Shown one piece after another: positions 24,367 through 50,216 of a DNA stretch of 64,000 bases; the stretch's first letter is position 1; each line of letters starts with the position of its first letter. The DNA is from an uncultured Lachnospiraceae bacterium (lineage in GTDB: Bacteria; Bacillota; Clostridia; Lachnospirales; Lachnospiraceae). The stretch covers positions 46,147-110,146 of the forward strand of contig CAKQYU010000005.1 in assembly GCA_934293575.1 (NCBI GenBank), in the 5' to 3' direction. The notes under the pieces were generated by a model. That model saw only the letters and a program-made list of their open reading frames with translations, ran no database searches and was not told the origin of the DNA. The position numbers and the translations under genes were made by a program.

Positions 24367-24394
24367 TATTTATAAAAAAATTTTAAATTAACTA

Positions 24395-24421: not shown

Positions 24422-24495
24422 ATGTAGTGTAAGGAACAACAAAAGGATTTGAGTTTCCTGATGGAAAATAATAAGATAAAGAAGAATGGATTCAA

Positions 24496-24527
24496 ATCAA
24501 AAGGATTTGATATCTCAAGGAGGAATT
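24496..24527 (+). promoter_or_regulatory. Putative CsrA-binding hairpin plus a site overlapping the SD in the flagellin-2 leader
   Basis: atcaaa-AGGA-tttgat hairpin, then caAGGAGGa. Confidence 0.4.
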
Positions 24528-24531
24528 TATT

Positions 24532-27462: not shown

Positions 27463-27464
27463 AT

Positions 27465-28160: not shown

Positions 28161-28172
28161 TCCTGTTAACCT

Positions 28173-29327: not shown

Positions 29328-29341
29328 TTGATTCTCCTTAT

Positions 29342-30373: not shown

Positions 30374-30494
30374 AAAGAGTCCTCTTTTCCTTTAACTTAC
30401 AATGATTATACAATGCCGGGTATGCAAAAGCAAATAGATTTATCGGGGGTGCTATGCTATAATATTTTAGAAATATTTTAGAAATGGAGATTGT

Positions 30495-32168: not shown

Positions 32169-32294
32169 GGGGGATTACCGATAATACATAAATGATGATA
32201 TAAGTATAAAGATTATTGCAAGAGTTACCGATACTAGTAGTGCAAGGATGCTGGAAATGTTTAAAGGATGTAAGGATCTAATATAGATATTTGA

Positions 32295-32329
32295 AAGCCA
32301 TATTTGCAACGGAATATGGCTTTTGTTTT
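32295..32329 (+). terminator. Rho-independent terminator after the maf paralog; may also act as a leader attenuator of the next gene
   Basis: AAGCCATATT-tgcaacgg-AATATGGCTT followed by ttgtttt. Confidence 0.5.
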
Positions 32330-32354: not shown

Positions 32355-33347
32355 ATGATTCGTATTAGACAGGCAGAGTATGAAGATATACCGCTTATTA
32401 TGAAATTTATAGATGAGCACTGGAAGAAGGATCATATTTTTGCAAGGGATAGGAAATTTTTTGAATGGCAGTTTGTTGAAAATGGAAAAGTAAATTTTTA
32501 TTTAGGAATTGATGAGGAACAAAAAAAGATTTATGGTGTGTTAGGAGTGATTCTGTATAATCATAGCGAACATCCTGATATATCGGGAACCATATGGAAA
32601 ACGATTAAAAGTGATAATCCAATATTAGGTATTGAGATAGATCGTTATATGTTTTATGCTTTACAAACAAGGTATGCCTGCTCAGCCGGCATAAGTGAAA
32701 AGGCAAAAAGAATTTATCAGATGATGGGGCATAAAATTGTTTTGATGGATCATTTTTATCGGTTGGGTGACTTTAATGAGTATAAAATTGCTAAAATAAA
32801 AAACAAGAAGATTCCACAAATAGAAAATACAGATTATGAATTAAGAAAAATTTTTTCTCTGAGTGAAATGAAAGCAATTATATCCGAGGAAAATTTAAAA
32901 AATAGTGTTATGAGCAAGGATTATGATTATATTGAAAAAAGATATTTTGAACACCCCATTTATAATTATGATATTTGGAAAATCCAAAACTCAAAACGGA
33001 TAGGAGAAGCTGTATTGGTTACTAGAGAGGAGCAGGTCGCAAACAGTAAAATATGTAAAATTATAGACTATTACGGAGATGCAAAATTGTTAGGAAAAAT
33101 AACCCCTGCACTTGATCGATTGATAATGGAAAAATCATATGAGTATGTTGATGTTTATTCTTACGGAGTAGATAGACAGATATACGAGCAGGCAGGATTT
33201 ATTTCCGTGGAGGAAAATGATGAGAATATTATCCCCAATTATTTTCATCCCTTTGAGAAAAAAAATGTTTTTCTGAATATGCTTGATCCCCAAATTGCTG
33301 GTCTTCGTTTATTTCGAGGAGATGGGGATCAGGATAGACCGTGTTAA
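32355..33347 (+). CDS. Acetyltransferase-like protein (GNAT-like N-terminal region plus a second domain), putative
   Basis: IRIRQAEYEDIPLIMKFI resembles a GNAT start; RBS gggagaag. Weak, motif-level only. Confidence 0.35.
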   Translation: MIRIRQAEYEDIPLIMKFIDEHWKKDHIFARDRKFFEWQFVENGKVNFYLGIDEEQKKIYGVLGVILYNHSEHPDISGTIWKTIKSDNPILGIEIDRYMFYALQTRYACSAGISEKAKRIYQMMGHKIVLMDHFYRLGDFNEYKIAKIKNKKIPQIENTDYELRKIFSLSEMKAIISEENLKNSVMSKDYDYIEKRYFEHPIYNYDIWKIQNSKRIGEAVLVTREEQVANSKICKIIDYYGDAKLLGKITPALDRLIMEKSYEYVDVYSYGVDRQIYEQAGFISVEENDENIIPNYFHPFEKKNVFLNMLDPQIAGLRLFRGDGDQDRPC

Positions 33348-33373
33348 TATAAAGAGTTATAAAGGATGAGAAA

Positions 33374-34099
33374 ATGAAATATTATTTAGTAACAGGTGCC
33401 TCTTCCGGTATTGGAAGAGAAGTTGCAAAACAAATATCAAATGAAGATACAACTGTTGTCTTAGTAGCAAGAAGAGAAGATAAATTAAAGGAGTTACAAT
33501 TAGAATTAATGGGACCCTCCGTTGTAATACCTTGTGATTTGCGGCGGAGTGTGGATATAAAAAATGTTTTTGATGAATTGAGTAAGAAAAAAATAAAACT
33601 TGATGGTTTGGTGTATTGTGCCGGAATATGTTTTGTAAAACCAATTAAAATTATGGAAGAAAATGAATTGCAGGATATGTTTCAGATTAATGTATTTGCT
33701 TTTTACGAAATGTGTAGGTATTTTTCGCAGGTTAGTGTTTCTAACAAAGGTGCCTGTATTGTTGGTGTTTCATCTTATGCAGCGGTTTCTAAAGAAGCTG
33801 GGATGTCTGCATATGCCATGACGAAAGAATCTATGAATGTCCAAACACAGGTTTTGGCACAGGAATTTTTAAAAAGAAAAATCAGAATAAACACTGTAAT
33901 GCCGGCACATGTTATGTCAAAGATGGCAGAGGATGAAAATACATGGACTGAGGAAGAATTAGAGATTGTAAAATGTAAACAACCATTGGGAATTATACCA
34001 ATCGATAATGTTGTCAAGGTTATAAAGTTTTTGTTATCAAGGGATGCCCAATATATTACTGGTCAGTCTATTTCGATAAATGCAGGTTATATAAAGTAG
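33374..34099 (+). CDS. SDR-family oxidoreductase (ketoacyl-ACP reductase-like)
   Basis: TGASSGIGREVAK Rossmann motif, NVFAF, S..AY....K catalytic pattern. Confidence 0.8.
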   Translation: MKYYLVTGASSGIGREVAKQISNEDTTVVLVARREDKLKELQLELMGPSVVIPCDLRRSVDIKNVFDELSKKKIKLDGLVYCAGICFVKPIKIMEENELQDMFQINVFAFYEMCRYFSQVSVSNKGACIVGVSSYAAVSKEAGMSAYAMTKESMNVQTQVLAQEFLKRKIRINTVMPAHVMSKMAEDENTWTEEELEIVKCKQPLGIIPIDNVVKVIKFLLSRDAQYITGQSISINAGYIK

Positions 34100-34113
34100 A
34101 GGGGTGTTAGACA

Positions 34114-35766
34114 ATGAAGGGTACGTTTAATAATGTAAAAATCGAAGGTGTTGCATCGGCAGTTCCTTGTTATGTGATGGACAATATGGATTATGTTGAT
34201 TTGTTTGGTAAGAGGAGAGTAACAAAACAAATCAAGATGACAGGTGTTCGAAAACATCATATGTCATTAAGGTATCAAAAAACATCTGATTTATGCATAC
34301 GAGCAGCTAGAGATCTAATTAGGCATTTGGAGTGGGAAAAAAATGAAATAAAAATATTGGTTTTTTGTACGCAATCCGCAGATTATGAAATTCCAACAAC
34401 TGCCATTGATTTGGCGGAACGATTGGGACTGGGTCATGATTGCATGGCTTTTGATATAAATATAGGCTGTTCAGCTTTTGATTTGGGGATTCAAACTGTA
34501 GGAAGTTTGTTACAAAGTCAGCCGGATGGAACAAAGGCAATTTTATTGACTGGTGATGTATCGAGCGCCCTGCAAGGTGGAGATGTTTTAAAGAAAGAGG
34601 ATATCATTAATTCCATGATGTTTGGTTCGGCAGGTTCGGCGGTTGCTATTAAAAAGGAATCAGGGCATCAGATAGTTTTTCAGAATTTTAGTGATGGTTC
34701 TGGTTGGGATGCAATTTTAAGATATCGTCGTTCAAAGACAAAAATGCAAGGAAACCGGGTTTTTGAATTTGCAATTTATGATGTGGCAGAGCATGTGATG
34801 AATTTGAAAGAATCACTTCAGGTTGAGGATAGGGATATTGACTATTATTGTTTTAATCAGTCTCAGAAATTAATCTTGGAATGTTTGGTGGATACTTGTG
34901 GCTTGAATGGAGAAAAGGTTCTTTATTCCTATGAGGAATATGGAAACACATCTGGAGCATCCATTCCGGTTACGTTATGCCATAACAGGAATAAATTCCT
35001 AAATAAAGAGTCTATAAATATTTGCAGCTGCGGTTTTGGCGTTGGATTATCCTGTGGTATTTCTGTATTTCAGATTAATCCTAAGAATATTTTACCAATC
35101 ATTGAAACGGATGAGCATTTTGATGAACATATCAAGCATTGTAGTTTTCTAGACGAAAGATATGCTCTTTTGATGGATACATCTTCAGACATAGGACAGT
35201 TGATTGGAAGACAATTGGATCGGGATGGTTGTAATCTTGGTTTGTTTGGAGATACAAAGAGTGCTGCTGCTTTAACGGAGCAATTTTTTTGGAAGGATTG
35301 TGAAGTCTACGAAAGGGATGATTTAAAATCCATTGTGTCGCGTGGAGTCCAATATCATGCAGTCGTTTATAATTTAAACTGCATAGAAAAGGAGAAAATC
35401 CAAAAAGAGGTTTTGTATTTATATCAAAATCAGACACTACAGAACAATGCGGTTATTATTTTAATTTCGGAGGCTTGCGAAGAGGCTGATCTGAGGCTGT
35501 TTTTACAGAATTTAGAAGAACAATGCGACTATGGAATTCGGGCTAATGCAGTTCTTTATATTCGTGAAAGTATGGATTTATATCCTGATATTGGGGATCG
35601 TATGGATTGGGTAGAAAGAAAACTGGCGATGCTGGATTCACAGAATATGGATCGCCCATTTTATTTGACAAATGTTGTGGCGAGATTAGTGTCGTCAAAG
35701 TTTGCTGGAGTTTCACAGTCGGTTATTCATATTTCGGATGGCAACATAAATATGAGAGACTGTTAA
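34114..35766 (+). CDS. KASIII (FabH)-like protein no. 1 with a C-terminal degenerate Rossmann/SDR-like extension
   Basis: DINIGCSAFDLG (active-site Cys), FNQSQ in place of the HQAN His motif, and EYGNTSGASIP (Asn). The last ~200 aa include LLMDTSSDIGQLIG, reminiscent of VTGASSGIG. Confidence 0.65.
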   Translation: MKGTFNNVKIEGVASAVPCYVMDNMDYVDLFGKRRVTKQIKMTGVRKHHMSLRYQKTSDLCIRAARDLIRHLEWEKNEIKILVFCTQSADYEIPTTAIDLAERLGLGHDCMAFDINIGCSAFDLGIQTVGSLLQSQPDGTKAILLTGDVSSALQGGDVLKKEDIINSMMFGSAGSAVAIKKESGHQIVFQNFSDGSGWDAILRYRRSKTKMQGNRVFEFAIYDVAEHVMNLKESLQVEDRDIDYYCFNQSQKLILECLVDTCGLNGEKVLYSYEEYGNTSGASIPVTLCHNRNKFLNKESINICSCGFGVGLSCGISVFQINPKNILPIIETDEHFDEHIKHCSFLDERYALLMDTSSDIGQLIGRQLDRDGCNLGLFGDTKSAAALTEQFFWKDCEVYERDDLKSIVSRGVQYHAVVYNLNCIEKEKIQKEVLYLYQNQTLQNNAVIILISEACEEADLRLFLQNLEEQCDYGIRANAVLYIRESMDLYPDIGDRMDWVERKLAMLDSQNMDRPFYLTNVVARLVSSKFAGVSQSVIHISDGNINMRDC

Positions 35767-35796
35767 AAGATATATTTTATTATGGAGGATAAGATT

Positions 35797-36018
35797 ATGA
35801 CATTACAAGAGAAAATCGAAATGTTAGAGGAAGTTATGGATGTTGAAGAAGGAGAATTAAGTGAAGAGATGGTACTAAACGAGATTGAAGAATGGGATTC
35901 GTTAAGTACACTTTCATTAACCGTTGAAATGAAAAAAAGATTTGGAATGAATCTTACAGAGGAACAGATAAAAAACTTTCATACGGTGGGAGATATTTGT
36001 AATTATATTCCGGATTGA
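35797..36018 (+). CDS. Acyl carrier protein (subfamily A, 1 of 3)
   Basis: 74-aa acidic helical protein with an EEWDSLSTLSL phosphopantetheine-attachment motif. Start set 7 nt after ggagga. Confidence 0.7.
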   Translation: MTLQEKIEMLEEVMDVEEGELSEEMVLNEIEEWDSLSTLSLTVEMKKRFGMNLTEEQIKNFHTVGDICNYIPD

Positions 36019-36062
36019 GAAAAGATTACTTTGAAAATTTTGGTGAGGTGTTAATAAGTACT

Positions 36063-37067
36063 ATGTACGGAGAATATCATAATATTAAAATCTGTGGTAT
36101 TGCTGCTGCAGTTCCAAAGAATACAATTGATAATGAGATATATGCAGAAAAATTAGGAAACCGACGTGCAAAAAAACAGGTATTATATACTGGAATTCGT
36201 CATCGTCATTGCGTAGAACAGGGGCAGTCTGCCTCTGATTTGAGTTGCTACTCAGCAGAGAAATTGTTAAGTGAATTGCATTGGAATCGAGATGAAATTC
36301 GTGTTTTGGTGAATGTAACACAATCTGCTGATTTGTATACGCCCTCTACAGCTATGATTATACAAAAACGTTTGGGTATTGGTCAGGATTGTATTGCATT
36401 TGATGTAAATTTAGGGTGTACAGGGTATGTAAGTGGACTACAAATTGTAGCAGCTTTGCTACAGAATACTGGTGGAAAAGGTCTTCTTTTGGTTGGAGAT
36501 GGAAGATATCATGAAATGCCGGAAGTTCCGACTACTGATTCTTTGCTGTTTGGAGATGGAGGTGCAGCAACGGCAATAGAATTAGAGGAAAACCATACAA
36601 TGCAGTATTCTCAAAAAACAGATGGTAATAGATATAATTTGTTATATACTGCGTTAGACGGAACTATGAAAATGGATGGAAATGCTGTTCTTCTTTTTTC
36701 CTTAAACGAGGTATGTGAAAGTATAAGGGAGTTTCGTGAGTATTTTCAAGTACGGGAAACTTCAATTGATTATTATATTCTGCATCAGGCACAAAAAATG
36801 ATCTTAGATGGTATTGCAAGAGAATGTAATATAGAAGCAGAAAAAATACCGCAATCTTATGAGGAATATGGAAATACATCAACGGCATCGATTCCAATAA
36901 CAATATGTAGTAATATAGAGGAAATAAGAAAAAAGCATCATGCCAGATTATTCTTATGTGGATTTGGAATTGGTTTGGCATGGTCAAATGTGGTTGTTGA
37001 CTTGGATACAACATGTATTTATCCGCTTCTAGAGACAGATTTTTGTTATAAGGATTTAGGAGAATAA
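36063..37067 (+). CDS. KASIII (FabH)-like protein no. 2 (canonical Cys-His-Asn)
   Basis: DVNLGCTGY, LHQAQKM, EEYGNTSTASIP. Start set at MYGEYHNIKICG by analogy with FabH N-termini; the track's TTG at 36015 is possible. Confidence 0.7.
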   Translation: MYGEYHNIKICGIAAAVPKNTIDNEIYAEKLGNRRAKKQVLYTGIRHRHCVEQGQSASDLSCYSAEKLLSELHWNRDEIRVLVNVTQSADLYTPSTAMIIQKRLGIGQDCIAFDVNLGCTGYVSGLQIVAALLQNTGGKGLLLVGDGRYHEMPEVPTTDSLLFGDGGAATAIELEENHTMQYSQKTDGNRYNLLYTALDGTMKMDGNAVLLFSLNEVCESIREFREYFQVRETSIDYYILHQAQKMILDGIARECNIEAEKIPQSYEEYGNTSTASIPITICSNIEEIRKKHHARLFLCGFGIGLAWSNVVVDLDTTCIYPLLETDFCYKDLGE

Positions 37068-37203
37068 TAAAGGATGAGTTAAGGGTAAAAATGAGATTGC
37101 AAATTGGAAACCGAATGGTTTATACAAATCTGTAAATTTTTTACAACATGCATTAGACGAATGTATTAAAAAAATCTAATAAAAAGATATGGAGGAATAA
37201 GAT

Positions 37204-37425
37204 ATGACGAGAGAAGAAAAAATGGAAGTGATTGCAGATATTTTAGAAATTGAGGTAAGTGATTTATCGGAGGATAAAATTTTAGAGGATTATGATACAT
37301 GGGATTCGGTTGCAGTGTTATCTGTAATTGCATTTATGAACGAGCAGTATAATCGTTTCCCACATGCATCTGAGATTCGAGCTTATAAAACAGTAGGGGA
37401 TTTAATGAATTATATGACTGAATAG
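37204..37425 (+). CDS. Acyl carrier protein (subfamily A, 2 of 3)
   Basis: DTWDSVAVLSV motif; paralog of the 35797 ORF. Confidence 0.7.
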   Translation: MTREEKMEVIADILEIEVSDLSEDKILEDYDTWDSVAVLSVIAFMNEQYNRFPHASEIRAYKTVGDLMNYMTE

Positions 37426-37465
37426 AGGCTATGTAGATATAATCAGTAAGAAAGAGAAGGAGCAT

Positions 37466-38203
37466 ATGGACAATTTTTTAAAACTTGGCGGTAAACGGGT
37501 TTTAGTAACCGGGGCTTCATCTGGGATTGGAAAAGCAACTGCAATTGCCTTGAGTGAACAAGGCGCAAATGTAATCATTATCGGACGTCGGGAAAATGAA
37601 TTAAATAATACCTATCAACAACTGTATGGAGATGGGCATGTTATGATTGTTGCAGATTTAACGGAGTTTGATCGATATACAGAGATATTTAAGCTTGCGA
37701 CTCAGCAAGGAAAATTAGATGGTTTAGTACATTGTGCAGGATTAGCAAAGCCTGTTCCTGCAAAAATGGTTTCTGAAAAATTGATAAAAGAGACATTTGA
37801 CGTAAATTTTGTGGCGTTTATGGAATTAGTTAAACATTTTATTAAACGAAAGAATTCTGAAAGAGGAAGTATTGTTGCTGTATCTTCTTATTTGGCAAAT
37901 AGGCCGCATATGTGCATGAGTATATATGCAGCTTCAAAGGGTGCCTTAGATAGTGCGGTAAAGTCCCTGGCATATGAATTCCTGGACAAGAATTATCGTG
38001 TAAATACGGTGGTCCCAGGATGGGTGGAAACACCGATGGTAACAGATTCTGCCAAAGTGTATGAAACAAATGTTGTGGAAGAACCTTCGTTGGGGGTTGC
38101 ACAGCCGTCGGATATTGCAAATGCAATTTTATTTTTAATAAGCGATGTTTCAAGATATGTAACCGGACGTAGTTATTATGTTGATGGAGGAAGGCTAACA
38201 TAA
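37466..38203 (+). CDS. SDR-family oxidoreductase (second copy)
   Basis: TGASSGIGKATA, NVIIIGRR, S..YAASK catalytic motif. Confidence 0.8.
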   Translation: MDNFLKLGGKRVLVTGASSGIGKATAIALSEQGANVIIIGRRENELNNTYQQLYGDGHVMIVADLTEFDRYTEIFKLATQQGKLDGLVHCAGLAKPVPAKMVSEKLIKETFDVNFVAFMELVKHFIKRKNSERGSIVAVSSYLANRPHMCMSIYAASKGALDSAVKSLAYEFLDKNYRVNTVVPGWVETPMVTDSAKVYETNVVEEPSLGVAQPSDIANAILFLISDVSRYVTGRSYYVDGGRLT

Positions 38204-38215
38204 GATAGGGGAAAT

Positions 38216-39022
38216 ATGAATATTCAGGAAGTAAAAATTGTTATAACCGATTTAAAAAGAAAGTATGGAAAACTATATTCTAATATTATTTGGCCCGATC
38301 TTACCTTACATGAAATCGTTGAAACTTATGAAGGTGAAAAAGGACTGGTTCTTGTGGTTGCTGAGGAGAATCGTAATAAGATTTTTTATGCGGTCACAGA
38401 TATTTCAATATTAAAAGAATTATTAATGCAAATTCAGAGAACAGCAGTTTTGGAGTATCACTACAAGGACATAAATGATATGGATGATGTGTTCCTTGTG
38501 GCCGGATTAATTCATTACGCAAATTATATTCGAGTAACCTCAACCTATTTGGAAAAACCATGTTGGGGAGGATCGAAACGACAAGATATGTTAAATGAAT
38601 TATATAACCCAGATTGTGGGGAATATCCCGTTCTTGAAGATGTGGAGGAGTTAGATCAATTAACAAGAACAAGCTTTGATCCTCTAATTGATGATGTTTT
38701 TTCTTTAGAAGAATGGAAAAATATTATACAGAATAAAGAATGCTTTGTAATAAAAGAAAATGGAAAAATAGTTACTTATTATGTGTGGCGGAGGGAAGGA
38801 AAAAAATTATATAGTAATATGTCATTGAATCTTGGACCTGCCAACTATATGTATAATTTGGAACGAAGGGTATTTGAAACAATGTGGAATGAAGGCATTC
38901 GAACGTTTTATGCATGGTATAATGAAGAAAATACCCGGGCTATAAAGCGAGGTATTTTTCCGGAATGTGCAAGAAATAACTGTATACATGATGCTATTTA
39001 TATAAATAAAAAGAGTGAATAA
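38216..39022 (+). CDS. Hypothetical protein inside the acyl cassette (possible acyltransferase)
   Basis: ORF with RBS; no clear motif. Confidence 0.35.
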   Translation: MNIQEVKIVITDLKRKYGKLYSNIIWPDLTLHEIVETYEGEKGLVLVVAEENRNKIFYAVTDISILKELLMQIQRTAVLEYHYKDINDMDDVFLVAGLIHYANYIRVTSTYLEKPCWGGSKRQDMLNELYNPDCGEYPVLEDVEELDQLTRTSFDPLIDDVFSLEEWKNIIQNKECFVIKENGKIVTYYVWRREGKKLYSNMSLNLGPANYMYNLERRVFETMWNEGIRTFYAWYNEENTRAIKRGIFPECARNNCIHDAIYINKKSE

Positions 39023-39040
39023 GAGAAAAGAGGGTTTAAG

Positions 39041-39259
39041 ATGAGTAACGAACAAAAAATTGAACTTCTAGAGGATATGATGGAAGTAGATGGAGGTAGT
39101 TTGGCAGGGGACATGTTGTTGGAAGATATTGACGAATACGATTCATTTTTTAAGTTATATCTTGTAACCTATGTGAAAAAAGAAATGGGGCAGAAATTAA
39201 CCGTAGAGGAAATTGCCCAATTTAAAACAGTGCAGGATATTTGTGATTATTTAAATTGA
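39041..39259 (+). CDS. Acyl carrier protein (subfamily A, 3 of 3)
   Basis: DEYDSFFKLYL motif; paralog of ACPs 1 and 2. Confidence 0.65.
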   Translation: MSNEQKIELLEDMMEVDGGSLAGDMLLEDIDEYDSFFKLYLVTYVKKEMGQKLTVEEIAQFKTVQDICDYLN

Positions 39260-39311
39260 TATATAATTGACTCTGACAAGATTATATATGAAATGTAAGG
39301 AGAGGATATAG

Positions 39312-40835
39312 TTGAGAAATTCTGTTTTATGCTATTTAGAGGAAAGTGTTGATAAATTTCCTCAAAAGATTGCACTTACTGATGCACAAGGAGATTATAC
39401 TTTTACACAGTGGAAATCCATGGCGCTTTGTATTGCAAATGCTATTATTGAAAAGAAAATGGGGAATAAGATTCCGATATTGGTGTACTTGCCGAAATCG
39501 GCAATGACGTTAATTTCTTTTGCGGGTGTTTTGTATAGTGGTAACTATTATACACCCACAGATGTGAAATTTCCCTTTGAAAAGGTCAATTCCATTATAA
39601 AATGCCTCCATCCTGAAATAATCGTAACTGATAAAAAGCATGGTAAATTCTTGAGCGATAATGGAATAGATGAGAAACGGTTTGTTTATGTAGATGAACT
39701 GGATTTTTCTATTACATACAAGAATGCACAATTGTTAAATAGTCAGATTATTGACACAGATTTGGCATATGTGTTCTTTACTTCCGGTTCTACCGGCGTC
39801 CCAAAGGGCGTTGCTATTAGACATAAAAGTATTATGGATTACATTGATTGGGCTGGTGAAAAATTCTCGATTGATAGTGATACTAGAATTGCCAATCAGG
39901 CACCGTTTTATTTTGATAATTCAATTTTGGATATCTATTTATGTATGAGTAAGGGAGCACATTTATTTGTTACTCCTGAGATGTATTTTGCATTTACTGC
40001 AAAATTGCTGGAATTTATCCGAGACAATCAGATTAATTTCATTTTTTGGGTACCATCGGCATTAATTAATGTTGCAAATAGCAAATTGTTAGAGCAAATT
40101 GATTGTAGCTGCATAAAAAAGGTTTTATTCTGTGGTGAGGTAATGCCGAATAGACATTTAAATTATTGGAGAAAGGAATTACCGGATGTTCTATATGCAA
40201 ATCTTTATGGACCGACTGAAATCACAGATGTTTGTTCGTATTATATAGTTAATCGAACATTTGATGATGATGAACCGCTGCCAATAGGTTTTGCATGTGA
40301 AAATACGCAAATTATGTTGTTAAATGATGAGAATATGCTTATTACAAGTCCGGAAGAAATGGGAGAATTGTGTGTTCGTGGGACAAGTTTATCGGCAGGA
40401 TATTACAATAATCCCGAAAAAACGGCTGAGGCATTTGTTCAAAATCCTTTAAATTCACATTATGAAGAAAAAATTTACAGGACAGGAGATTTGGCACATT
40501 ATAATCAATATGGTGAAATTATGTTTGATGGAAGAAAAGATTTTCAGATTAAACATATGGGATATCGTATTGAATTGGGAGAGATTGAGACAGCACTTTT
40601 AAGTATGGATGCAGTATATAATGCATGTTGTATTTATGATACAAAGAATAGTAAAATAGTAGCATTTTGTAAAACGGATCAAGTGATTACAGAAGTAGCG
40701 ATTCGGAAGTGCTTAGGTGGAATCTTACCTAAATATATGATTCCGTCTCAATATGTTCTATTGGAGGAGCTGCCATATAACGATAATGGTAAAATAGATC
40801 GTAAGGAATTAAAGAAAAAATATATAGATGAATAA
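39312..40835 (+). CDS. Adenylate-forming enzyme (AMP-binding superfamily; DltA-like or acyl/aminoacyl-ACP ligase-like)
   Basis: YVFFTSGSTGVPKGV core motif, YGPTE, GDLA...DG...GRKD. TTG start after RBS aaggagagg. Confidence 0.8.
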   Translation: MRNSVLCYLEESVDKFPQKIALTDAQGDYTFTQWKSMALCIANAIIEKKMGNKIPILVYLPKSAMTLISFAGVLYSGNYYTPTDVKFPFEKVNSIIKCLHPEIIVTDKKHGKFLSDNGIDEKRFVYVDELDFSITYKNAQLLNSQIIDTDLAYVFFTSGSTGVPKGVAIRHKSIMDYIDWAGEKFSIDSDTRIANQAPFYFDNSILDIYLCMSKGAHLFVTPEMYFAFTAKLLEFIRDNQINFIFWVPSALINVANSKLLEQIDCSCIKKVLFCGEVMPNRHLNYWRKELPDVLYANLYGPTEITDVCSYYIVNRTFDDDEPLPIGFACENTQIMLLNDENMLITSPEEMGELCVRGTSLSAGYYNNPEKTAEAFVQNPLNSHYEEKIYRTGDLAHYNQYGEIMFDGRKDFQIKHMGYRIELGEIETALLSMDAVYNACCIYDTKNSKIVAFCKTDQVITEVAIRKCLGGILPKYMIPSQYVLLEELPYNDNGKIDRKELKKKYIDE

Positions 40836-40873
40836 ATAGATGACTTTGTTTATAGTATGACAGGAGGATTAAA

Positions 40874-41104
40874 ATGGATAAAATATTAGATATATTAAAT
40901 GAAATACATCCAGAATTTAATTATGAAAATAGTAGTGATTTTATTGAAGATGCTTTACTAGATTCTTATGATGTAATTGAATTAGTTGCTCGTCTTGAAG
41001 AAGTATATGAAATACAGATAGATGGTATGGATATTCTTCCAGAATATTTTTGTGACTTGGAGGCAATCAAACGGATTATAGTTAAAAATGGTGGAAGCGT
41101 ATGA
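40874..41104 (+). CDS. Acyl/peptidyl carrier protein (subfamily B, 1 of 2)
   Basis: LLDSYDVIELVARLEE motif; paralog of the 43094 ORF. Confidence 0.65.
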   Translation: MDKILDILNEIHPEFNYENSSDFIEDALLDSYDVIELVARLEEVYEIQIDGMDILPEYFCDLEAIKRIIVKNGGSV

Positions 41105-42045
41105 AAGCAAAGTGGAGCGGAAAGAGGATAGCTGGCATTTTATCAATTTTAGATTCAGATAAAAAACGTGCTGTTTCTGAAATGCATGTTTATGCAGCTA
41201 AAGTCTTGCTTTCGAAGAAAATGATTCAAAAAAGCGAAATAGGTGCAATTGTCGTTATAACTTTAACACCAGATTATTATTTGCCTCAAGTCAGTATGAT
41301 TTTGCATGATGAGCTTAACTTGAGTGAAGACGTTATTTGTGTCGATATTGCACAAGGTGGAACAGGTTATATTGTTGGTTTGACACAGGCATTTATGTTA
41401 TTGGAACATATCAAGGATAAAAAGGTTCTTTTGTTTACTGGGGATATAATGAGTTGTTCTAGTCAGAATGCGTCAAGAGTGTTTACGGTTTCTGTCATTG
41501 AGAACAATAATTCTTATGGTAAGATTTACTGCGAAATAGACTCAGATATGGAAAGTTCTAAAAAGATGATCCTTCCTTGTGGAGGGTTTCGCCATCCCGT
41601 ATTTCATGACAATGATGCTTATATTGCAATGCAAAATGGTCAGATTGGTAATGGGTTAGAATTGCAGATAGATACGGAAGCGTTCGAAAAATATTTTCTT
41701 GTGCAGGAACCTATATTGTTTAAGACTCTACTTCAAGATAGTCGATTTAGTATAGAAGATATTAAAAAAATTTTTTTTCAATTACCATTTAAATCTAACG
41801 CACATTTTATATTAGATTGTATTAATCTTAATAAAGAAACTGTGAAATATGAGCAAACAGAAACGGTAGACAATATAAGTGCTTCTGCAATACCACGAAT
41901 TATTTGTAAAGAGATGCAGGAATCTTTTTCGAGTGAAAAGGAATACTGTTTATTAATGAGCTGTGGGTCTGGATTTAGTCTGGCTGGGCTAATTATGGAG
42001 ATTGGTTGTATGGATTTTTGTGAAGTGATAGAAACAATAATCTGA
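41101..42045 (+). CDS. KASIII-like protein no. 3 lacking the active-site cysteine
   Basis: FabH-like fold; CVDIAQGGTGY has Gly where the nucleophilic Cys sits in paralogs (LGCTGY, AGCSGY, QACTGF). NISASAIP retains the Asn; the His motif is altered. Confidence 0.6.
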   Translation: MKAKWSGKRIAGILSILDSDKKRAVSEMHVYAAKVLLSKKMIQKSEIGAIVVITLTPDYYLPQVSMILHDELNLSEDVICVDIAQGGTGYIVGLTQAFMLLEHIKDKKVLLFTGDIMSCSSQNASRVFTVSVIENNNSYGKIYCEIDSDMESSKKMILPCGGFRHPVFHDNDAYIAMQNGQIGNGLELQIDTEAFEKYFLVQEPILFKTLLQDSRFSIEDIKKIFFQLPFKSNAHFILDCINLNKETVKYEQTETVDNISASAIPRIICKEMQESFSSEKEYCLLMSCGSGFSLAGLIMEIGCMDFCEVIETII

Positions 42046-42053
42046 GGTGTGTT

Positions 42054-43082
42054 ATGAATACGTTTTTTTATGATAAAAGGATAAGTGGGGTATTGGGTAT
42101 TTTGCCTGAAACCGTAAAATATTACGAAGACGAATTAATTGATGGGTTTAGTAAACGAAATCAAATGATTAAAAAAAATATGGGTTATGGAAAAAGATAT
42201 CATGCAAAACCGACTACTACTACTGCTGATTTATGTATGAGTGGATTGCAGTATTTGTTCGATAAAAAATTAATCGACAAAGAGGATATTTCTGCTATTA
42301 TTGTGGCAACTTTTACCCCCGATTATTTTGTGCCACAAATATCGACATTGATTCATCAGGGCTTTGGATTTTCAAGTGATGTATTTAATTTGGATATATG
42401 GGCTGGTTGTAGCGGGTATGTGGAAGGATTATTGCAGGCATTTTTGTTTTTAGAAACCAATCCTCAAAAAAAAGTATTATTGTTTACTGGAGATGTTATA
42501 AATCGAATGGAAGAAACCATTTACAAATATGAAGAACCATATTATGGTGGTGATGGGGCGAGTATTTCCATTGTTGAAAATTCACCATCACAAAAAATTC
42601 CATTTTTGTTGATGTGTGATGGAAAAGGGAAAGATTTGATTACATTTCAACAGGGAGCATTTGCAGATATTTATCATCAAAAATTAGTTAGTACTGTACA
42701 GAACAATCCAATGGAATCATTTCGATATTTTCAAGAAAAAGTACCAAACCTTATAGAACGATTGTTAGAGTATGGTTCTATTAAGAAAGAAGATATTGAT
42801 CATTATTTTCTGATTCACGCAAACAAATTGGCAGTGTTGAAAATGGCAGATCGACTGCAGATAAGCAGAGAAGCGGTATCTTCTGATATAGTAGAAAAAT
42901 ATGGCGATATAAGTGCTTCTCTTAATCCAGTTTCCATTATTGACTATTATGGAGAAAAAATGCTGAAAAAACAAACCCAAAAAGTGGTTTTATGCGGATA
43001 TGGGGCTGGTGCCAGATGGGGAGCCACCGTTATGGATATTGGAAATATGAATTTTTGTGAAAATTATTATACGGATTTATAA
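42054..43082 (+). CDS. KASIII-like protein no. 4 (Cys and His present, Asn to Asp)
   Basis: LDIWAGCSGYVEG, LIHANKL, EKYGDISASLNP. Confidence 0.65.
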   Translation: MNTFFYDKRISGVLGILPETVKYYEDELIDGFSKRNQMIKKNMGYGKRYHAKPTTTTADLCMSGLQYLFDKKLIDKEDISAIIVATFTPDYFVPQISTLIHQGFGFSSDVFNLDIWAGCSGYVEGLLQAFLFLETNPQKKVLLFTGDVINRMEETIYKYEEPYYGGDGASISIVENSPSQKIPFLLMCDGKGKDLITFQQGAFADIYHQKLVSTVQNNPMESFRYFQEKVPNLIERLLEYGSIKKEDIDHYFLIHANKLAVLKMADRLQISREAVSSDIVEKYGDISASLNPVSIIDYYGEKMLKKQTQKVVLCGYGAGARWGATVMDIGNMNFCENYYTDL

Positions 43083-43093
43083 GGAGAATAAGA

Positions 43094-43324
43094 ATGGAAC
43101 AAATTAAAGAATTATTGATGACAATAAGACCAGAATTTAATTTTGAAACAAGTGATAATTATATTGAAGATGGATATTTGGATTCACTTGATATAACAAC
43201 TTTGATATCAGTATTAGAGGAAACATATGGAATTGTAATTGATGCACTAGAAATAGTGCCGGAAAATTTTTATAACACTGCAACGATTATCAATCTTGTG
43301 AGGAAAAGTGGAGGAGAGGTCTGA
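43094..43324 (+). CDS. Acyl/peptidyl carrier protein (subfamily B, 2 of 2)
   Basis: YLDSLDITTLISVLEE motif. Confidence 0.65.
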   Translation: MEQIKELLMTIRPEFNFETSDNYIEDGYLDSLDITTLISVLEETYGIVIDALEIVPENFYNTATIINLVRKSGGEV

Positions 43325-43326
43325 TT

Positions 43327-44391
43327 ATGCAGTTTGTGTTCAAGGGGAAAAAAATAACTGGTATGTTGGGGGTTTTGCCAGAAAATGAGTATTTGTTTGA
43401 AGATGAAACTCGTGATTTTTCATCAAGTCATGCAAGGCGATTGAAAAAGATAATGGGATATGGAAAGCGAAGAAGAGTGAAAAAAGATACAACTACCTCT
43501 GATTTGTGTATCTTTGGTATGAATTACCTTTTAGAGAATGATTTGATAAAGAAAGAAGATGTAGGTGCGATTATTGTCAGTACAATGACTCCGGATTATT
43601 TTCTTCCACATGTGAGCAACATTGTTCACGGAGAATGTGGATTTTCTGATGAAGTTGTATGTTTAGATATTCCTCAAGCCTGTACAGGTTTTTTACTGGG
43701 CTTACTTCAGGCATTCATGTTGCTGGATCATATGAAGGATAAAAAAGTAGTTGTATTTACAGCCGATGTATTGAATCGCAAAATATACGATGAAGAAGTT
43801 TTTACGGAGCCACCATTTGGAGGGGATGCTGCTACAGTTACAATTGTTGAAAATGATGGGGCAGCTGAAGATATCTATTTTGACATTCGAATGGATGGAA
43901 AGGACAGAAATTGTTTGATTATGCCAACGGGTGGATTTCGTATGCCATGGACCGAGTCTGATGAAAAGGTAGATATTGGTGATGGCATTTTAAGGGATGC
44001 AAATCGATTAAATATGGATGGCTCGACTGTATTTAATTTTGTACAACAGAAGGTACCTCCTTTAATTGATGATTTAATGAAATTTGCAAATAAGTCAAAG
44101 GAAGATATGGATTGGTTTTTATTCCATCAGCCTAATAAATTTATGCTTCAAAAACTTGCAGAAAAATTAGGCGTTCCATATGAAAAAATGTTTATGAATA
44201 TTGTTGAAGAATATGGAAATTCCAGTGGTTCTGTAATTGGAATTAATATTGTTCATAATTTGGGCTCCAAGCTTGAAGATGATTTGTATGAGTGCTGTTT
44301 ATCCGCTTTTGGTGGAGGGTTGTCATGGGGAGCCCTGGTAATGCAGCTTGGAAACATGGATTTTTGTGAGATGATAGAAAGTAATCTATAA
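43327..44391 (+). CDS. KASIII (FabH)-like protein no. 5 (canonical Cys-His-Asn)
   Basis: LDIPQACTGFLLG, FHQPNKF, EEYGNSSGSVIG. Confidence 0.7.
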   Translation: MQFVFKGKKITGMLGVLPENEYLFEDETRDFSSSHARRLKKIMGYGKRRRVKKDTTTSDLCIFGMNYLLENDLIKKEDVGAIIVSTMTPDYFLPHVSNIVHGECGFSDEVVCLDIPQACTGFLLGLLQAFMLLDHMKDKKVVVFTADVLNRKIYDEEVFTEPPFGGDAATVTIVENDGAAEDIYFDIRMDGKDRNCLIMPTGGFRMPWTESDEKVDIGDGILRDANRLNMDGSTVFNFVQQKVPPLIDDLMKFANKSKEDMDWFLFHQPNKFMLQKLAEKLGVPYEKMFMNIVEEYGNSSGSVIGINIVHNLGSKLEDDLYECCLSAFGGGLSWGALVMQLGNMDFCEMIESNL

Positions 44392-44600
44392 AACCATTCT
44401 AATTAATGTAGTGAGAGTGTGTAAAGTTTTATTTTGGGAGAATGAAAATTGAAATATAAAAAAGTAGTTGTAATCGGTTCTAATACAATTGCTGTTGAAT
44501 GTGTAAGGATTTTATTTAAGGAATATCGTATTGAAGATTTGGCTGTAGCGGAATATTTGTTGTAAAACAGGAGCGTTTTGTTAAAGGGGTCATATGTTGA

Positions 44601-45401
44601 ATGAGTAATAAAAACGATAAAATAAATGATATAATTAGTCATTGTATTGGAAAATCCAATAGAACAAATTGTTACTTGTCCTATTCCCAGGTTGAAGAGA
44701 TACTACAAGCAGGTAGAAGTCAACTTATAGTAGGAGCAAATGTAGTGTATCTTTTAGTGCCTAATGATAATTATAATGAGTTGATTTTTTTTGCATACGA
44801 TAATGCGCTTAATATGATTGAAAATCAGGATTTGTTGCTAAAAAATTTATCTTCTGAAAAAAAATGTGTGATAAATATTGTTTCTAAGGATGAGTCAAAA
44901 TACAAAGAGATTGTAGACGCACTTGGTTTTAATTTATATAAAAGGTATGTTAGAAAAGCAATAAAAACAAAAGAAGATTTTTTTCCGATATTTGAGCATA
45001 AAAGTTATGATTTTGTTGATATAAGTGAAATTATGCTGATTCAGAATATGATGATGGAAACATTTGATTTAATATCTGATAAAATTCCAAGTAAAGCGGA
45101 ATTAGAAAAGTTAATTGAACAAAAGTGTATTTTAAAATATTCGGTGGATGATAAAATTCGGGGATTTTTAATTTATGAACATCAGGGGAAAAGGTCATAT
45201 TTGCGTATGCTTTGTATACAGGAAGATTTTAGAGGACAAGGAATAGGAAAAATTCTGTTGAAAAGATATTTTATGTTAGAGGCGAATCATACAGAATTGT
45301 TTTATTTATGGGTTGATTCTGAAAATTTGGATGCAATTGGTTTATATGAAAAAAATGGTTATATTTCTGATGGTCTAAAACAATATATTTACATAAGATG
45401 A
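44601..45401 (+). CDS. GNAT-family N-acetyltransferase
   Basis: C-terminal RMLCIQEDFRGQGIGKILLK, the GNAT acetyl-CoA-binding motif A. Confidence 0.7.
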   Translation: MSNKNDKINDIISHCIGKSNRTNCYLSYSQVEEILQAGRSQLIVGANVVYLLVPNDNYNELIFFAYDNALNMIENQDLLLKNLSSEKKCVINIVSKDESKYKEIVDALGFNLYKRYVRKAIKTKEDFFPIFEHKSYDFVDISEIMLIQNMMMETFDLISDKIPSKAELEKLIEQKCILKYSVDDKIRGFLIYEHQGKRSYLRMLCIQEDFRGQGIGKILLKRYFMLEANHTELFYLWVDSENLDAIGLYEKNGYISDGLKQYIYIR

Positions 45402-45430
45402 GTTGAACATATACAATAGGAGCTATTAGT

Positions 45431-46384
45431 ATGAATAATCTCGAAATCGTAATGTACCATTACGTCCGACCAATTAAAAACAGCAAATATCCCAATATCA
45501 AGGGGCTGGAACTGGAATTATTCAAGCAGCAATTGGATTTTTTTAAGGCAAATTTTTCCGTTGTAACAATGGGGGAGGTAATTGACTCCTTGTCCGGAAA
45601 ATGTACCCTCCCGGATAATGCGGTTCTTTTAACTTTTGATGACGGATACATGGATCATTATCAGCATGTGTTTCCATTGTTAAAACAGTATAATATGCAG
45701 GGCTCATTTTTTGTTCCGTCCGGTATACTAAAATATGAACAGGTTTTGGACGTCAATAAGATACATTTTATTCTTGCATGTATGCAGCTTGAGGAGTTGT
45801 TGCCAAAGGTTTATGCCATGCTGCGGGAATATCGGGATAAGGGGTATGAGCTGGAATCGGATGATGTATTGTTTTCTAAATTGGCAGTGGCGAACCGGTG
45901 GGATTCCAAGGAAGTTATTTTTGTAAAACGACTGCTACAGTCCTATCTGGATGAAAGTCTTCGAGGGGAAATGGTAAATCGGTTGTTTGAGGAAGCTGTT
46001 GGAGTGCCGGAGCGGGAATTTTCCCATGAGCTTTACGTGAATTTAGAGCAGATTAAAGAAATGAAGAATGCAGGAATGTATTTTGGATTACACGGAGAGC
46101 GGCATTATTGGTTGAATCATTTACCGGTTGATAAGATGAAAGAGGATATTAATAACAGTCTGGAATATTTTCGGGATGTAATGGACATGAACTATCTTGC
46201 GATGAATTATCCATACGGTGGTTATAATGAGGACGTGTTAGCGTATTGTAAATCCATTGGTTGTAAGCTTGGATTTTCCGTGGAAGCCAGACATGTGGAT
46301 TTTGACCGAGATAATCCGTTGGCGGTACCAAGATTAGATACCAATGATTTTCCGCCGAAGAGTGAAAATTATAAAAATATGTGA
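45431..46384 (+). CDS. Polysaccharide deacetylase (NodB homology domain)
   Basis: VLLTFDDGYMDHY metal-binding motif; HGERHYW. Confidence 0.75.
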   Translation: MNNLEIVMYHYVRPIKNSKYPNIKGLELELFKQQLDFFKANFSVVTMGEVIDSLSGKCTLPDNAVLLTFDDGYMDHYQHVFPLLKQYNMQGSFFVPSGILKYEQVLDVNKIHFILACMQLEELLPKVYAMLREYRDKGYELESDDVLFSKLAVANRWDSKEVIFVKRLLQSYLDESLRGEMVNRLFEEAVGVPEREFSHELYVNLEQIKEMKNAGMYFGLHGERHYWLNHLPVDKMKEDINNSLEYFRDVMDMNYLAMNYPYGGYNEDVLAYCKSIGCKLGFSVEARHVDFDRDNPLAVPRLDTNDFPPKSENYKNM

Positions 46385-46407
46385 GACAATAAAAGAGGTA
46401 TAATATT

Positions 46408-47088
46408 ATGAAATGCAAGTACAAAATAGATGGAATCGATGTTTATAAATATATTATGCCGGTGATTCGTTCGAATATGTATATTATGCTTGTTGATAAT
46501 CAAGCATTAATTATTGATCCCAATATAAACGAAGATGCAGTGGATTTGCTAAAGGATAATCATGTGAAGATGGTTACAATCATTTTGACGCATGAACATT
46601 ATGACCATATTTCGGGAGTGAATTATTTTCGAAAATATTTCCGGTGTACGGTAATTGGTAATGAAAAGTGCAAGGATATGACTGTGGATCCGACAAAGAA
46701 TATGGCAGCCTTTTTTATGGCAATGTTTATTGATAAATCAGAAGCAGAACGGCAAAGCGTAAACGATATATTAAGTGAAACCTATAGTTGTAATGTGGAT
46801 TTGGGATTTATAAACGAGAAGGAATACGTCATTGGATCATTGCATTTATTGTTAAGGGAAACTCCGGGTCATTCTCCTGGAAGTATATGTATAGAAGTAA
46901 ATCGTAGTTATGTTTTTTCCGGAGACAGTCTTGTAGATGGAGCTAAAATTATAACTAGATTACCGGGCGGAAATAAGAAGGATTATCAAGAGATTACAAG
47001 GCCATATTTGGAATCATTAGATGATAATATAATTATATTTCCCGGACATGGAAATGAGGGTAAAATAAGTGAATTTAAAATAGGATAG
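46408..47088 (+). CDS. MBL-fold metallo-hydrolase
   Basis: ILTHEHYDHISG (HxHxDH), downstream GDS and PGHG motifs. Confidence 0.75.
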   Translation: MKCKYKIDGIDVYKYIMPVIRSNMYIMLVDNQALIIDPNINEDAVDLLKDNHVKMVTIILTHEHYDHISGVNYFRKYFRCTVIGNEKCKDMTVDPTKNMAAFFMAMFIDKSEAERQSVNDILSETYSCNVDLGFINEKEYVIGSLHLLLRETPGHSPGSICIEVNRSYVFSGDSLVDGAKIITRLPGGNKKDYQEITRPYLESLDDNIIIFPGHGNEGKISEFKIG

Positions 47089-47195: not shown

Positions 47196-47235
47196 AAAAC
47201 CATCGTTTTTTCAAAAAACGATGGTTTTTTCTAAA
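47196..47235. terminator. Strong bidirectional terminator at the end of the glycosylation island
   Basis: aaaaccatcgtttttt-caa-aaaacgatggtttttt: ~14-bp perfect stem flanked by A- and T-runs. Confidence 0.65.
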
Positions 47236-50018: not shown

Positions 50019-50156
50019 GGAAACCCCTCTCCTAAGTTAATGACATAATTGTATCATGTAAAAATATAATTGTAACTATTAACTTTATTTTAGGGGGCTT
50101 TTAATTTCCCATTTTATAAAATATTCCATAAATCTCCACAACATGACATTTTCATA

Positions 50157-50186
50157 TTGACAATAGAACAAATGTTCTGGTATAAT
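50157..50186 (+). promoter_or_regulatory. Sigma-A-type promoter
   Basis: TTGACA-N18-TATAAT directly upstream of the 50217 ORF. Confidence 0.4.
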
Positions 50187-50216
50187 ACAACCATAATATA
50201 TTTGGGAGGTATCTGT

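Follow-up and report, generated by a model that had tools for sequence, protein, structure and literature searches.

We analysed a cassette of acyl carrier protein (ACP), KASIII-like and acyltransferase genes in a 64,000-nucleotide stretch of contig CAKQYU010000005.1 from an uncultured Lachnospiraceae bacterium (the whole stretch is called the window here), where it lies downstream of flagellin-glycosylation genes and is a candidate source of unusual N-acyl groups for a flagellin sugar. The open reading frame (ORF) list of the window contains 17 ORFs between 33374 and 47088, all on the plus strand. Their coordinates, order and orientation agree with an original prediction made from the same DNA, and Pfam and NCBIfam confirmed the components. 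These genes are real but are not the whole of the unit, which spans about 15 kb and begins further upstream, at 32355, with an additional tandem-GNAT gene. Intergenic gaps are −4 to 52 nt, the exceptions being 136 nt between the genes designated below as KAS2 and ACP2 and 209 nt between KAS5 and GNAT, and a purine-rich stretch resembling a ribosome-binding site (RBS) precedes most of the ORFs. Hairpins lie at both ends of the 32355-47088 unit. The first (32292-32325, plus strand, a 14 bp stem with a T-run) is terminator-like, is located between the stop of the second upstream Maf gene (Maf2; 32168) and the first cassette gene, and could be either the 5′ boundary of the unit or a leader attenuator. 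The second (47196-47228, 15-bp stem) follows the last gene and forms the 3′ boundary. Proteins identical to those of the cassette are encoded on many human-gut metagenome contigs, Hadza samples included.

Five of the proteins, KAS1 to KAS5, are KASIII-like. KAS1, KAS2, KAS4 and KAS5 match ACP_syn_III_C above the Pfam gathering score and KAS3 scores 25.8 bits against a gathering cut-off of 26.6; none reaches the cut-off of the FabH model TIGR00747 (292.1 bits; KAS2 162, KAS5 136, KAS4 124, KAS1 118 and KAS3 65). We aligned all five to E. coli FabH, whose C112/H244/N274 motifs align unambiguously, and took a census of the catalytic residues in orthologs from 86 fetched loci. The full Cys112-His244-Asn274 triad is present in KAS2 and KAS5; KAS1 reads Cys-Asn-Asn, KAS3 Gly-Gln-Asn and KAS4 Cys-Ile-Asp. 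KAS2 (36015-37067) belongs to a family in which 38 of 38 members have Cys-His-Asn and is predicted to be a true condensing enzyme. KAS5 (43327-44391), the core enzyme of the comparisons below, has the same triad in 84 of 84 sequences. Its nearest NCBIfam model is NF009519/PRK12880 (172 bits vs a cut-off of 436), which is also the best model for KAS3 and was probably built on the Campylobacter fabH2 type.

The remaining three KASIII-like proteins depart from this pattern in different ways. KAS1 (34114-35766) has a KASIII-like domain in residues 1 to about 330, and its family keeps the His in 15 of 18 distinct sequences; the two Cys-Asn-Asn sequences are those of the window lineage, in which Asn has replaced the catalytic His244. 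The rest of KAS1 (residues about 335-550; 35116-35766) had been described as a Rossmann tail. It is indeed derived from short-chain dehydrogenases/reductases (SDRs; hhalign probability 99.5-99.7%, E 1e-22 to 1e-25), but its glycine motif is degenerate, its Ser-Tyr-Lys segment is deleted and the motifs of a classical SDR are lost, so that the tail is best described as a putative non-catalytic pseudo-SDR. The KASIII-pseudoSDR fusion is kept in about 20 loci.

KAS3 (41101-42045; 314 aa) has Gly in place of Cys112 and Gln in place of His244 and lacks about 41 aa near its N-terminus; judged by these residues it is catalytically dead, either a relic or a non-catalytic, perhaps structural, partner. 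The Gly-Gln-Asn pattern is found in the window lineage only. By position and sequence KAS3 corresponds to a gene of the KAS5 family that lies before KAS4 in another locus (L088) and is intact there (355 aa); it is 44% identical to this counterpart vs 70% for the flanking KAS4 and 62% for ACP4. The KAS3 cluster has 20 members, of which 15 are listed; the 314-aa frame is intact in 14 of these, and 67 contigs carry the variant found in the window. Strain alleles of KAS3 differ by one synonymous and two non-synonymous changes, too few in these dN/dS-style counts to judge selection.

KAS4 (42054-43082) represents a small family of about two dozen members in which Cys112 is kept, Ile, Leu or Val stands at His244 and Asp at Asn274 in 23 of 23 sequences. 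Because both His and Asn are gone, KAS4 should be unable to run the usual decarboxylative condensation and is predicted to be a non-condensing, transacylase or thioesterase-like enzyme. A KAS5-family gene and a KAS4-type gene stand side by side with a gap of 8-10 nt in the window (41101-43082) and in three other loci (L088, 8923-11029; L089, 8930-11029; L087, 8914-11038). This recurring pair suggests, by analogy, a heterodimer in the manner of PqsB/PqsC, of which the window's first partner would be dead. We also considered KAS3-KAS4-ACP5 as a recent tandem duplication of ACP4-KAS5 and rejected it: identities are only 31-45%, and the same KASx-KAS4 pair occurs in distant genomes.

All five carrier proteins contain the D-S motif and give weak PP-binding matches (E 3e-7 to 5e-3), those of ACP3-5 lying just under the Pfam gathering score. 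As had been proposed, they form two subfamilies, between which BLAST gives only E > 0.09. The A-type, fatty-acid-synthase-like ACP1 (35782-36018, with a DSL serine), ACP2 (37204-37425) and ACP3 (39041-39259; Pfam E 0.005, 45% identical to ACP1) are 31-45% identical to each other and resemble fatty-acid ACPs such as AcpM. The B-type ACP4 (40874-41104) and ACP5 (43094-43324) are 45% identical and show a weak resemblance to stand-alone peptidyl carrier proteins (PCPs), to PltL and to DltC. Upstream of ACP4 lies a gene for a stand-alone amino-acid adenylation (A) enzyme of the nonribosomal peptide synthetase (NRPS) type (39312-40835; AMP-binding, E 1e-57). It scores 327.2 bits with TIGR01733 (cut-off 317.4), fails the DltA equivalog model TIGR01734 (317 vs 559.85 bits) and finds its best PDB matches in the A domains of LgrA, GrsA, TycA and DltA. 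The enzyme carries Asp235 (motif A4, FDNS) and Lys517 (A10, NGKIDR), and its 10-residue specificity code is DNLFLCLDVK, for which we know of no match among known codes.

Three further proteins have, or are predicted to have, a GNAT fold. The gene at the head of the unit, u32355 (32355-33347; the ORF list gives a longer TTG start at 32304, hence its alias u32304, and the 32355 start is the one called in other assemblies), encodes a 330-aa Eis-like tandem-GNAT acyltransferase and heads the KAS1 module; in many relatives, too, it is part of the cassette. It has no Pfam or NCBIfam match, and hhalign found no match to the GNAT, HYP, SDR, AntNAT or formyltransferase families; the GNAT fold is visible in the predicted structure only, and on that model u32355 is a candidate amino-sugar N-acyltransferase. 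The product of 38216-39022 (HYP), previously called hypothetical, turns out to be a two-domain paralog of the 266-aa GNAT protein encoded further downstream (hhalign probability 100%, E 4e-51, both halves homologous). In relatives HYP usually follows KAS5, and the HYP-ACP3 pair recurs. The GNAT acyltransferase itself (44601-45401; Pfam GNAT E 6e-12) carries the CoA motif RGQGIG, and the Q/RxxGxG/A acyl-CoA pyrophosphate motif is absent by pattern from HYP and u32355, which could reflect another donor such as acyl-ACP or plain divergence. A lenient Pfam scan (E up to 10) of the KAS1 tail, HYP, u32355 and the N-terminal half of GNAT returned noise only, and an AlphaFold model of the GNAT/HYP pair from a two-row alignment was unusable (pLDDT 50.5). 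These three proteins are the likeliest transferases to the sugar nitrogen, and the original prediction, in giving this step to the KASIII-like enzymes, probably chose the wrong family.

The cassette also encodes two FabG-like ketoreductases, SDR1 (33374-34099; adh_short E 2e-42) with intact TGxxxGxG and YxxxK motifs and SDR2 (37466-38203; adh_short E 2e-51), likewise intact, and it ends with two hydrolase genes. The protein encoded at 45431-46384 had been called a NodB-type deacetylase. It is a CE4 (NodB-homology) de-N-acetylase (Polysacc_deac_1 E 2e-21, 76.5 bits vs 23.1) with all motifs present (TFDD at residue 68, HGERH of the HxxxH type at 221 and YPYG of the xPYG type at 260), and its family is linked to the tandem-GNAT gene in relatives, but it is not a NodB ortholog (TIGR04243, 19 bits vs 240). 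The last gene (46408-47088) encodes a metallo-beta-lactamase (MBL)-fold hydrolase with an HxHxDH motif (Lactamase_B E 4e-17), a probable thioesterase since it shows weak similarity to the thiolesterase glyoxalase II and to SolJ. We found no KASI/II, dehydratase or enoyl reductase in the cassette, nor any exporter, regulator, thioesterase domain or condensation domain.

The unit directly follows a flagellin-Maf-Neu block whose position upstream of the cassette had been correctly predicted. Pfam and NCBIfam identify, in order, FlaG, FliD, FliS, an FlgN-like protein, two flagellins, Maf, NeuA, NeuC, NeuB and a second Maf. The two 288-aa flagellins (23442-25398, that is, 23442-24308 and 24532-25398, plus strand; Flagellin_N/C E about 1e-39 and 1e-28) each hold a short Ser/Thr-bearing linker, GTSTGTD, and are the presumed glycan acceptors. 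They adjoin a Maf gene (25579-27462, plus strand), followed on the minus strand by a NeuA-like cytidylyltransferase (27465-28160; CTP_transf_3), NeuC (28173-29414; TIGR03568, 406.6 bits vs a cut-off of 235.9) and NeuB (29342-30373; TIGR03569, 389 bits, just under the cut-off of 399.65; PseI model 232), and then by Maf2 (30495-32168, plus strand). Both Mafs have an MptE-like/PseD domain, and the window offers no other candidate for a nonulosonate transferase. With flagellins next to Mafs and with a synthase, a hydrolysing 2-epimerase and a CMP-transferase, the locus has the make-up of a Maf-type flagellin nonulosonate island, and by its profile matches the block 25579-32168 would cover synthesis, activation and transfer of the sugar; the NeuB, NeuC and NeuA scores do not separate a Neu from a Leg type. 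Homologs of 4,6-dehydratase, DegT aminotransferase and PglD-type acyltransferase are absent from the window.

We scanned a genome collection with the KAS5 family, which gave the 80 best loci, and labelled 79 non-redundant loci with the window proteins. KAS5 homologs number in the thousands at about 50-60% identity and occur in Lachnospiraceae, Paenibacillus, Lysinibacillus, Negativicutes and Flavobacteriaceae. KAS5 is accompanied by the A domain in 77 of the 79 loci and by a B-type ACP in 76, and these three form an invariant core. An N-transferase (GNAT, HYP, formyltransferase, AntNAT, PglD-like or tandem GNAT) is present in 75, and the MBL hydrolase, frequently the terminal gene of the core module, in 37. 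Around the core, accessory modules recur in varying order, namely ACP-(KAS2)-SDR2-AntNAT and tandemGNAT-SDR1-ACP1-KAS1; both are found in the window as well, arranged differently and lacking AntNAT. The CE4 and tandem-GNAT genes occur together in four of five CE4 loci and are adjacent in three (hypergeometric p about 0.01, a hand estimate). The core A-domain codes (loci L005-L086), all with Asp235, fall into discrete classes: DIFFWALLDK (the commonest), DNLFLCLDVK (that of the window), DNLFLALVDK, DIQYMGVVNK and, in Flavobacteriaceae, DMLFLGMGTK. Since there are at least five such classes, the codes point to several different amino-acid substrates. Some loci have extra AMP-binding genes without Asp235, which look like acyl ligases.

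These comparisons bear on the size and the purpose of the kit. The window, with five KAS genes, tops the 79 relatives, which have one (41 loci), two (18), three (17) or four (3). The claim of a far larger toolkit is nevertheless overstated: another gut-metagenome locus (L089, 1-21029) also has five KASIII genes and encodes, besides, three adenylating enzymes, some seven carriers, five SDRs, two Methyltransf_21 proteins and a Glyoxalase_4 protein, and a further one (L087) has four KASIII genes and three adenylating enzymes, with transposases on its flanks. L090 is likewise among the gut-metagenome loci with equal or larger cassettes. In 47 of the 79 loci the core has Neu, aminosugar or flagellar genes at most 10 kb away, although many contigs are truncated. 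The core is found in a flagellar island in Lysinibacillus, in a polysaccharide/ABC-transporter locus in Schwartzia (L006) and in loci that read NeuC-A-ACP-KAS5-ACP-PglD in Flavobacteriaceae, and we take the members of that family that carry it to be non-flagellate. Because the core also occurs in these polysaccharide and NeuC/PglD loci, the kit appears to be a general sugar N-acylation system and not specific to flagella.

The window lineage also differs from its own relatives. In four same-species assemblies (L001, L003, L004 and L007) the slot after KAS5 is occupied by a 283-aa formyltransferase gene (20331-21182 in L001), where the window has GNAT. A formyltransferase 5′ stub is left in the window (44473-44553, plus strand; 89% identity over formyltransferase residues 9-35), and homology between the window and the formyltransferase alleles breaks at 44547 and 45446. 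The stub is most simply read from this alignment as a remnant left when the GNAT gene replaced the formyltransferase gene, and the allelic slot therefore implies that the terminal N-capping enzyme has been exchanged within the species. Taken with the state of the KAS genes, the cassette is one shuffled, partly decayed member of a widespread gene kit and not a unique five-step assembly line: the original prediction had read five KASIII paralogs with five carriers as a multistep assembly, a view that is not supported, KAS3 being catalytically dead, KAS1 without its His and KAS4 of a non-condensing type. At most two or three C-C bond-forming steps in the cassette are plausible on the residue patterns.

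With moderate confidence, we favour the view that 32355-47088 is a factory of modular build that uses carrier proteins to make N-acyl groups other than acetyl; the sugar that receives them would be a Neu/Leg-type nonulosonic acid, which the two Mafs would place on the flagellins of this human-gut bacterium. From the gene content, residue patterns, folds, synteny and allelic swaps we infer in outline each chemical step, the amino acid used, the length of the chains and the acceptor, as follows. The KAS2-ACP2-SDR2 module, a type of set that is the textbook one for 3-hydroxyacyl-ACP, would yield a short 3-hydroxyacyl-ACP, at its simplest one that carries 3-hydroxybutyryl. The u32355-SDR1-KAS1-ACP1 module would provide a second short hydroxyacyl unit in relatives and may be disabled here, where the KAS1 His is lost. 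No KASI/II, dehydratase or enoyl reductase accompanies them, so the chains should be short and should keep a beta-hydroxyl or beta-keto group. The A domain would load an alpha-amino acid onto a PCP-like carrier (ACP4 or ACP5), and KAS5 would condense the aminoacyl group with a malonyl carrier to a beta-keto-gamma-aminoacyl thioester. For KAS5 we favour this decarboxylative condensation over simple acyl transfer, as the likelier of the two by a fair margin, because all condensing residues are kept in 84 of 84 sequences. KAS4, with its Cys only, may move, trim or hydrolyse acyl thioesters, with KAS3 as an inactive relic or structural partner, and the MBL-fold hydrolase may edit or release thioesters.

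The last steps would take place on the sugar. In a window without 4,6-dehydratase, aminotransferase or PglD, the sole island-encoded nitrogen is that inherited from UDP-GlcNAc and arrives acetylated; a custom N-acyl group therefore needs de-N-acetylation, which makes a deacetylate and re-acylate route reasonable. CE4 would first remove the N-acetyl group, and the GNAT-fold proteins u32355, HYP and GNAT would then acylate the sugar nitrogen or cap the aminoacyl amino group. This route had been put forward in the original prediction, and in outline it gains support from the CE4/tandem-GNAT linkage and from the missing genes; the idea that carrier-tethered short acyl or aminoacyl units are passed to a sugar nitrogen likewise fits the components of the cassette.

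Several observations weigh against this view of the locus. Sigma-28/SigD-like TAAA-N16-CCGATA sites lie directly 5′ of both flagellin genes (23271-23296 and 24395-24420). The cassette has only a variant of this site with a 17-nt spacer (32207-32233), located after the Maf2 stop; downstream of it, the hairpin at 32292-32325 falls inside a would-be leader of ~110 nt and ends ~30 nt before the first cassette start. A scan for the sigma-70 consensus gave no excess (100 sites vs 94.8 in shuffled sequence). With a terminator-like hairpin between Maf2 and the cassette, and no strong flagellar promoter in front of it, co-regulation with flagellin is no more than a possibility. In addition, KAS5 may merely transfer acyl groups and not condense them; LegB/LegC-type genes elsewhere in the genome could supply another acceptor and make de-N-acetylation unneeded; the same CMP-sugar could serve another surface glycan, a GT2 gene being nearby on the opposite strand; and the KAS1 change, the dead KAS3 and the formyltransferase stub may mean that part of the cassette is decaying.

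A bolder reading, which we offer as tentative, is that the A domain-PCP-KAS5 trio is an undescribed unit that joins an alpha-amino acid on its carrier to a malonyl unit, supplies the resulting gamma-amino-beta-keto(hydroxy)acyl groups for nonulosonic or amino sugars and underlies a combinatorial, strain-specific flagellar glycan chemistry. If true, variation would arise through switching of the A-domain code, shuffling of FabH/ketoreductase, tandem-GNAT and KAS4 modules, and swaps of GNAT and formyltransferase, and three families for which no role has been described would gain one: the Cys-only, KASIII-like KAS4 family, the fusion of KASIII with a pseudo-SDR, and the Eis-like tandem GNAT of 330 aa.

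Among the alternatives to the N-acyl factory, the one that survives best, and that we still consider rather unlikely, is a recombinational patchwork in decay, in which the core (A domain, ACP5, KAS5, GNAT and MBL), and perhaps KAS2-ACP2-SDR2, works and makes one simple aminoacyl or hydroxybutyryl group instead of a complex hybrid. The loss of Cys, His and 41 aa from KAS3, its low identity to the intact counterpart relative to KAS4 and ACP4, the KAS1 change confined to the window lineage, the formyltransferase stub, the shuffled module order and the missing AntNAT all agree with it. Yet none of the ORFs is disrupted and each is preceded by an RBS-like sequence, the KAS3 frame persists across its cluster and on the many contigs that carry the window variant, and polymorphism is too low to measure selection.

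It is improbable that the cassette is a stand-alone, NRPS/polyketide synthase-like natural-product cluster that happens to stand beside the flagellin island, with a product such as a tetramate-like compound or an N-acyl amino acid. An A domain with PCP, KASIII and MBL is typical of such clusters, there are weak matches to solanimycin SolG and SolJ, hairpins bracket the unit and no clear flagellar promoter precedes it; but the core adjoins Neu, aminosugar or flagellar genes in 47 of the 79 loci, across Firmicutes and Flavobacteriaceae, and travels with AntNAT, PglD-like, formyltransferase, Eis-like GNAT and CE4 deacetylase genes, and the cassette lacks an exporter, a regulator, a thioesterase domain and a condensation domain. 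Decoration of another surface glycan (capsule, S-layer or wall polymer) instead of flagellin is very improbable. The Schwartzia and Flavobacteriaceae contexts of the core and the GT2 gene 2 kb downstream would suit it, but the unit comes directly after flagellin-Maf-NeuACB-Maf, the two Mafs are the only transferase candidates, and, of the window ORFs that were scanned against Pfam, none was seen to encode a polysaccharide exporter or polymerase. Equally improbable is a long fatty acyl chain that would make the flagellin glycan a 'liposugar', as fatty-acid-synthase-like genes of flagellin islands have been read before (PMC4875605, PMC7874193): ACPs, KASIII-like enzymes and ketoreductases are present, but these KASIII enzymes are of the initiation type only, KASI/II, dehydratase, enoyl reductase and LuxC/LuxE are missing, and the invariant core is an amino-acid A domain.

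Other features of the window surround the island. Right after the terminal hairpin, 47270-48352 encodes a Fic/DOC-domain protein with a C-terminal helix-turn-helix-like region, and ~2 kb 3′ of the cassette 48963-51215 encodes the GT2 glycosyltransferase on the minus strand, adjoining a 352-aa protein without a family match that is possibly coiled-coil. Just 5′ of flaG, a DUF2201 (VWA-like)/MoxR-type AAA pair is enclosed by two leucine-rich-repeat proteins of the BspA type (15160-19703), and a pyruvate formate-lyase-like glycyl-radical enzyme and its radical-SAM activase, unrelated to the cassette, lie on the minus strand at 11280-14812. An Rfam scan gave as its sole match an unrelated S-adenosylmethionine (SAM) riboswitch (60630-60735, 73 bits), an ordinary one 5′ of the S-adenosylmethionine synthetase gene at 60843.

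Gut Lachnospiraceae have flagellins that rank among the main targets of the host immune system, and our literature search found no paper on the glycans of these flagellins. The locus and its roughly 80 relatives give the old problem of this gene set a concrete shape, with an invariant three-gene core, code classes that predict different amino acids, and separable modules. Natural 'knock-outs' (the dead KAS3 and the His to Asn change in KAS1) and natural swaps (GNAT vs formyltransferase) complete the list, and each of these features leads to a mass-spectrometric prediction. If the chemistry is as proposed, the kit would add a route to hybrid aminoacyl/hydroxyacyl sugar decorations, and its genes could serve to mark, at the level of strains, how the antigens of commensal flagella vary.

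The same search brought up no study of what KASIII/ACP/A-domain genes do in flagellin islands, no mention of them in the C. botulinum, Clostridium and Geobacillus island papers, and no description of the A-domain/PCP/KAS5 core, the KAS4 class, the KASIII-pseudoSDR fusion, the 330-aa tandem GNAT or the prevalence of such cassettes in gut Clostridia. The closest known system is presumably that of C. jejuni NCTC 11168, where Cj1298-Cj1308 comprise a LegH-like acetyltransferase, acpP2, fabH2, acpP3, an amino-acid-activating enzyme and an ACP; we know of no function assigned to the fabH2, acpP2/3 and amino-acid-activating genes. Like the cassette of the window, this gene set lies in a flagellin nonulosonate island and includes a KASIII-like protein, more than one small ACP and a free-standing enzyme for the activation of amino acids. 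In contrast, KAS5 is no equivalog of NF009519/PRK12880, and the window lacks a PglD/LegH-type transferase and has three GNAT-fold proteins, CE4, the KASIII-pseudoSDR fusion and the KAS4 class.

The flagellin islands of Aeromonas (group II) and Enterobacteriaceae encode ACP, FabG, an AMP-dependent synthetase/CaiC, LuxE and LuxC, from which a 'liposugar' has been guessed (PMC7874193, PMC4875605). They resemble the window in placing a carrier protein, a ketoreductase and an adenylating enzyme inside flagellin sugar islands. Their sets, reported without KASIII, rely on a LuxC/LuxE-type acyl-protein synthetase and reductase and on fatty-acid CoA ligases, whereas the adenylating enzyme of the window is an amino-acid A domain and is accompanied by many KASIII and GNAT proteins. 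The flagellin nonulosonate of Shewanella bears an extra 236-264 Da moiety (PMC3765264), and Maf enzymes are able to transfer Neu5Ac (bioRxiv 2020.06.03.131540). The logic of de-N-acetylating a GlcNAc-derived sugar and then adding an acyl group from a dedicated ACP is shared with the Nod-factor route (NodB, NodA, NodF ACP and NodE) and with LpxC/LpxD of lipid A. Unlike these, the window has no NodA or LpxD-type transferase, its ketosynthases are of the KASIII and not the KASII type, and its chains are predicted to be short.

KAS4, which keeps the nucleophilic Cys and has lost the decarboxylation residues, may be likened to CerJ, ChlB6, PtmR and DpsC, KASIII-like acyltransferases of natural-product pathways. 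CerJ and DpsC likewise lack the canonical Asn; KAS4 differs in being without the His that these enzymes keep, and at E <= 1e-5 the PDB sequence matches of KAS4 and KAS5 include no chain of CerJ or DpsC. PqsD (3h76, 'PQS biosynthetic enzyme') is among the PDB matches of KAS4 (E 1e-15) and PqsC among those of KAS5 only, and a dead KAS3 beside a Cys-bearing KAS4 resembles the PqsB/PqsC pair. Finally, in butirosin (BtrI/J/H) and in clorobiocin and coumermycin (the CloN/CouN prolyl-PCP relay) an aminoacyl side chain is built on a small carrier and transferred to a sugar. The tailoring and transfer enzymes of these systems belong to other families than those of the window, but in them, too, the amino acid is attached to a small carrier by a separate adenylating or ligating enzyme, as we propose for the A domain and its B-type ACPs.

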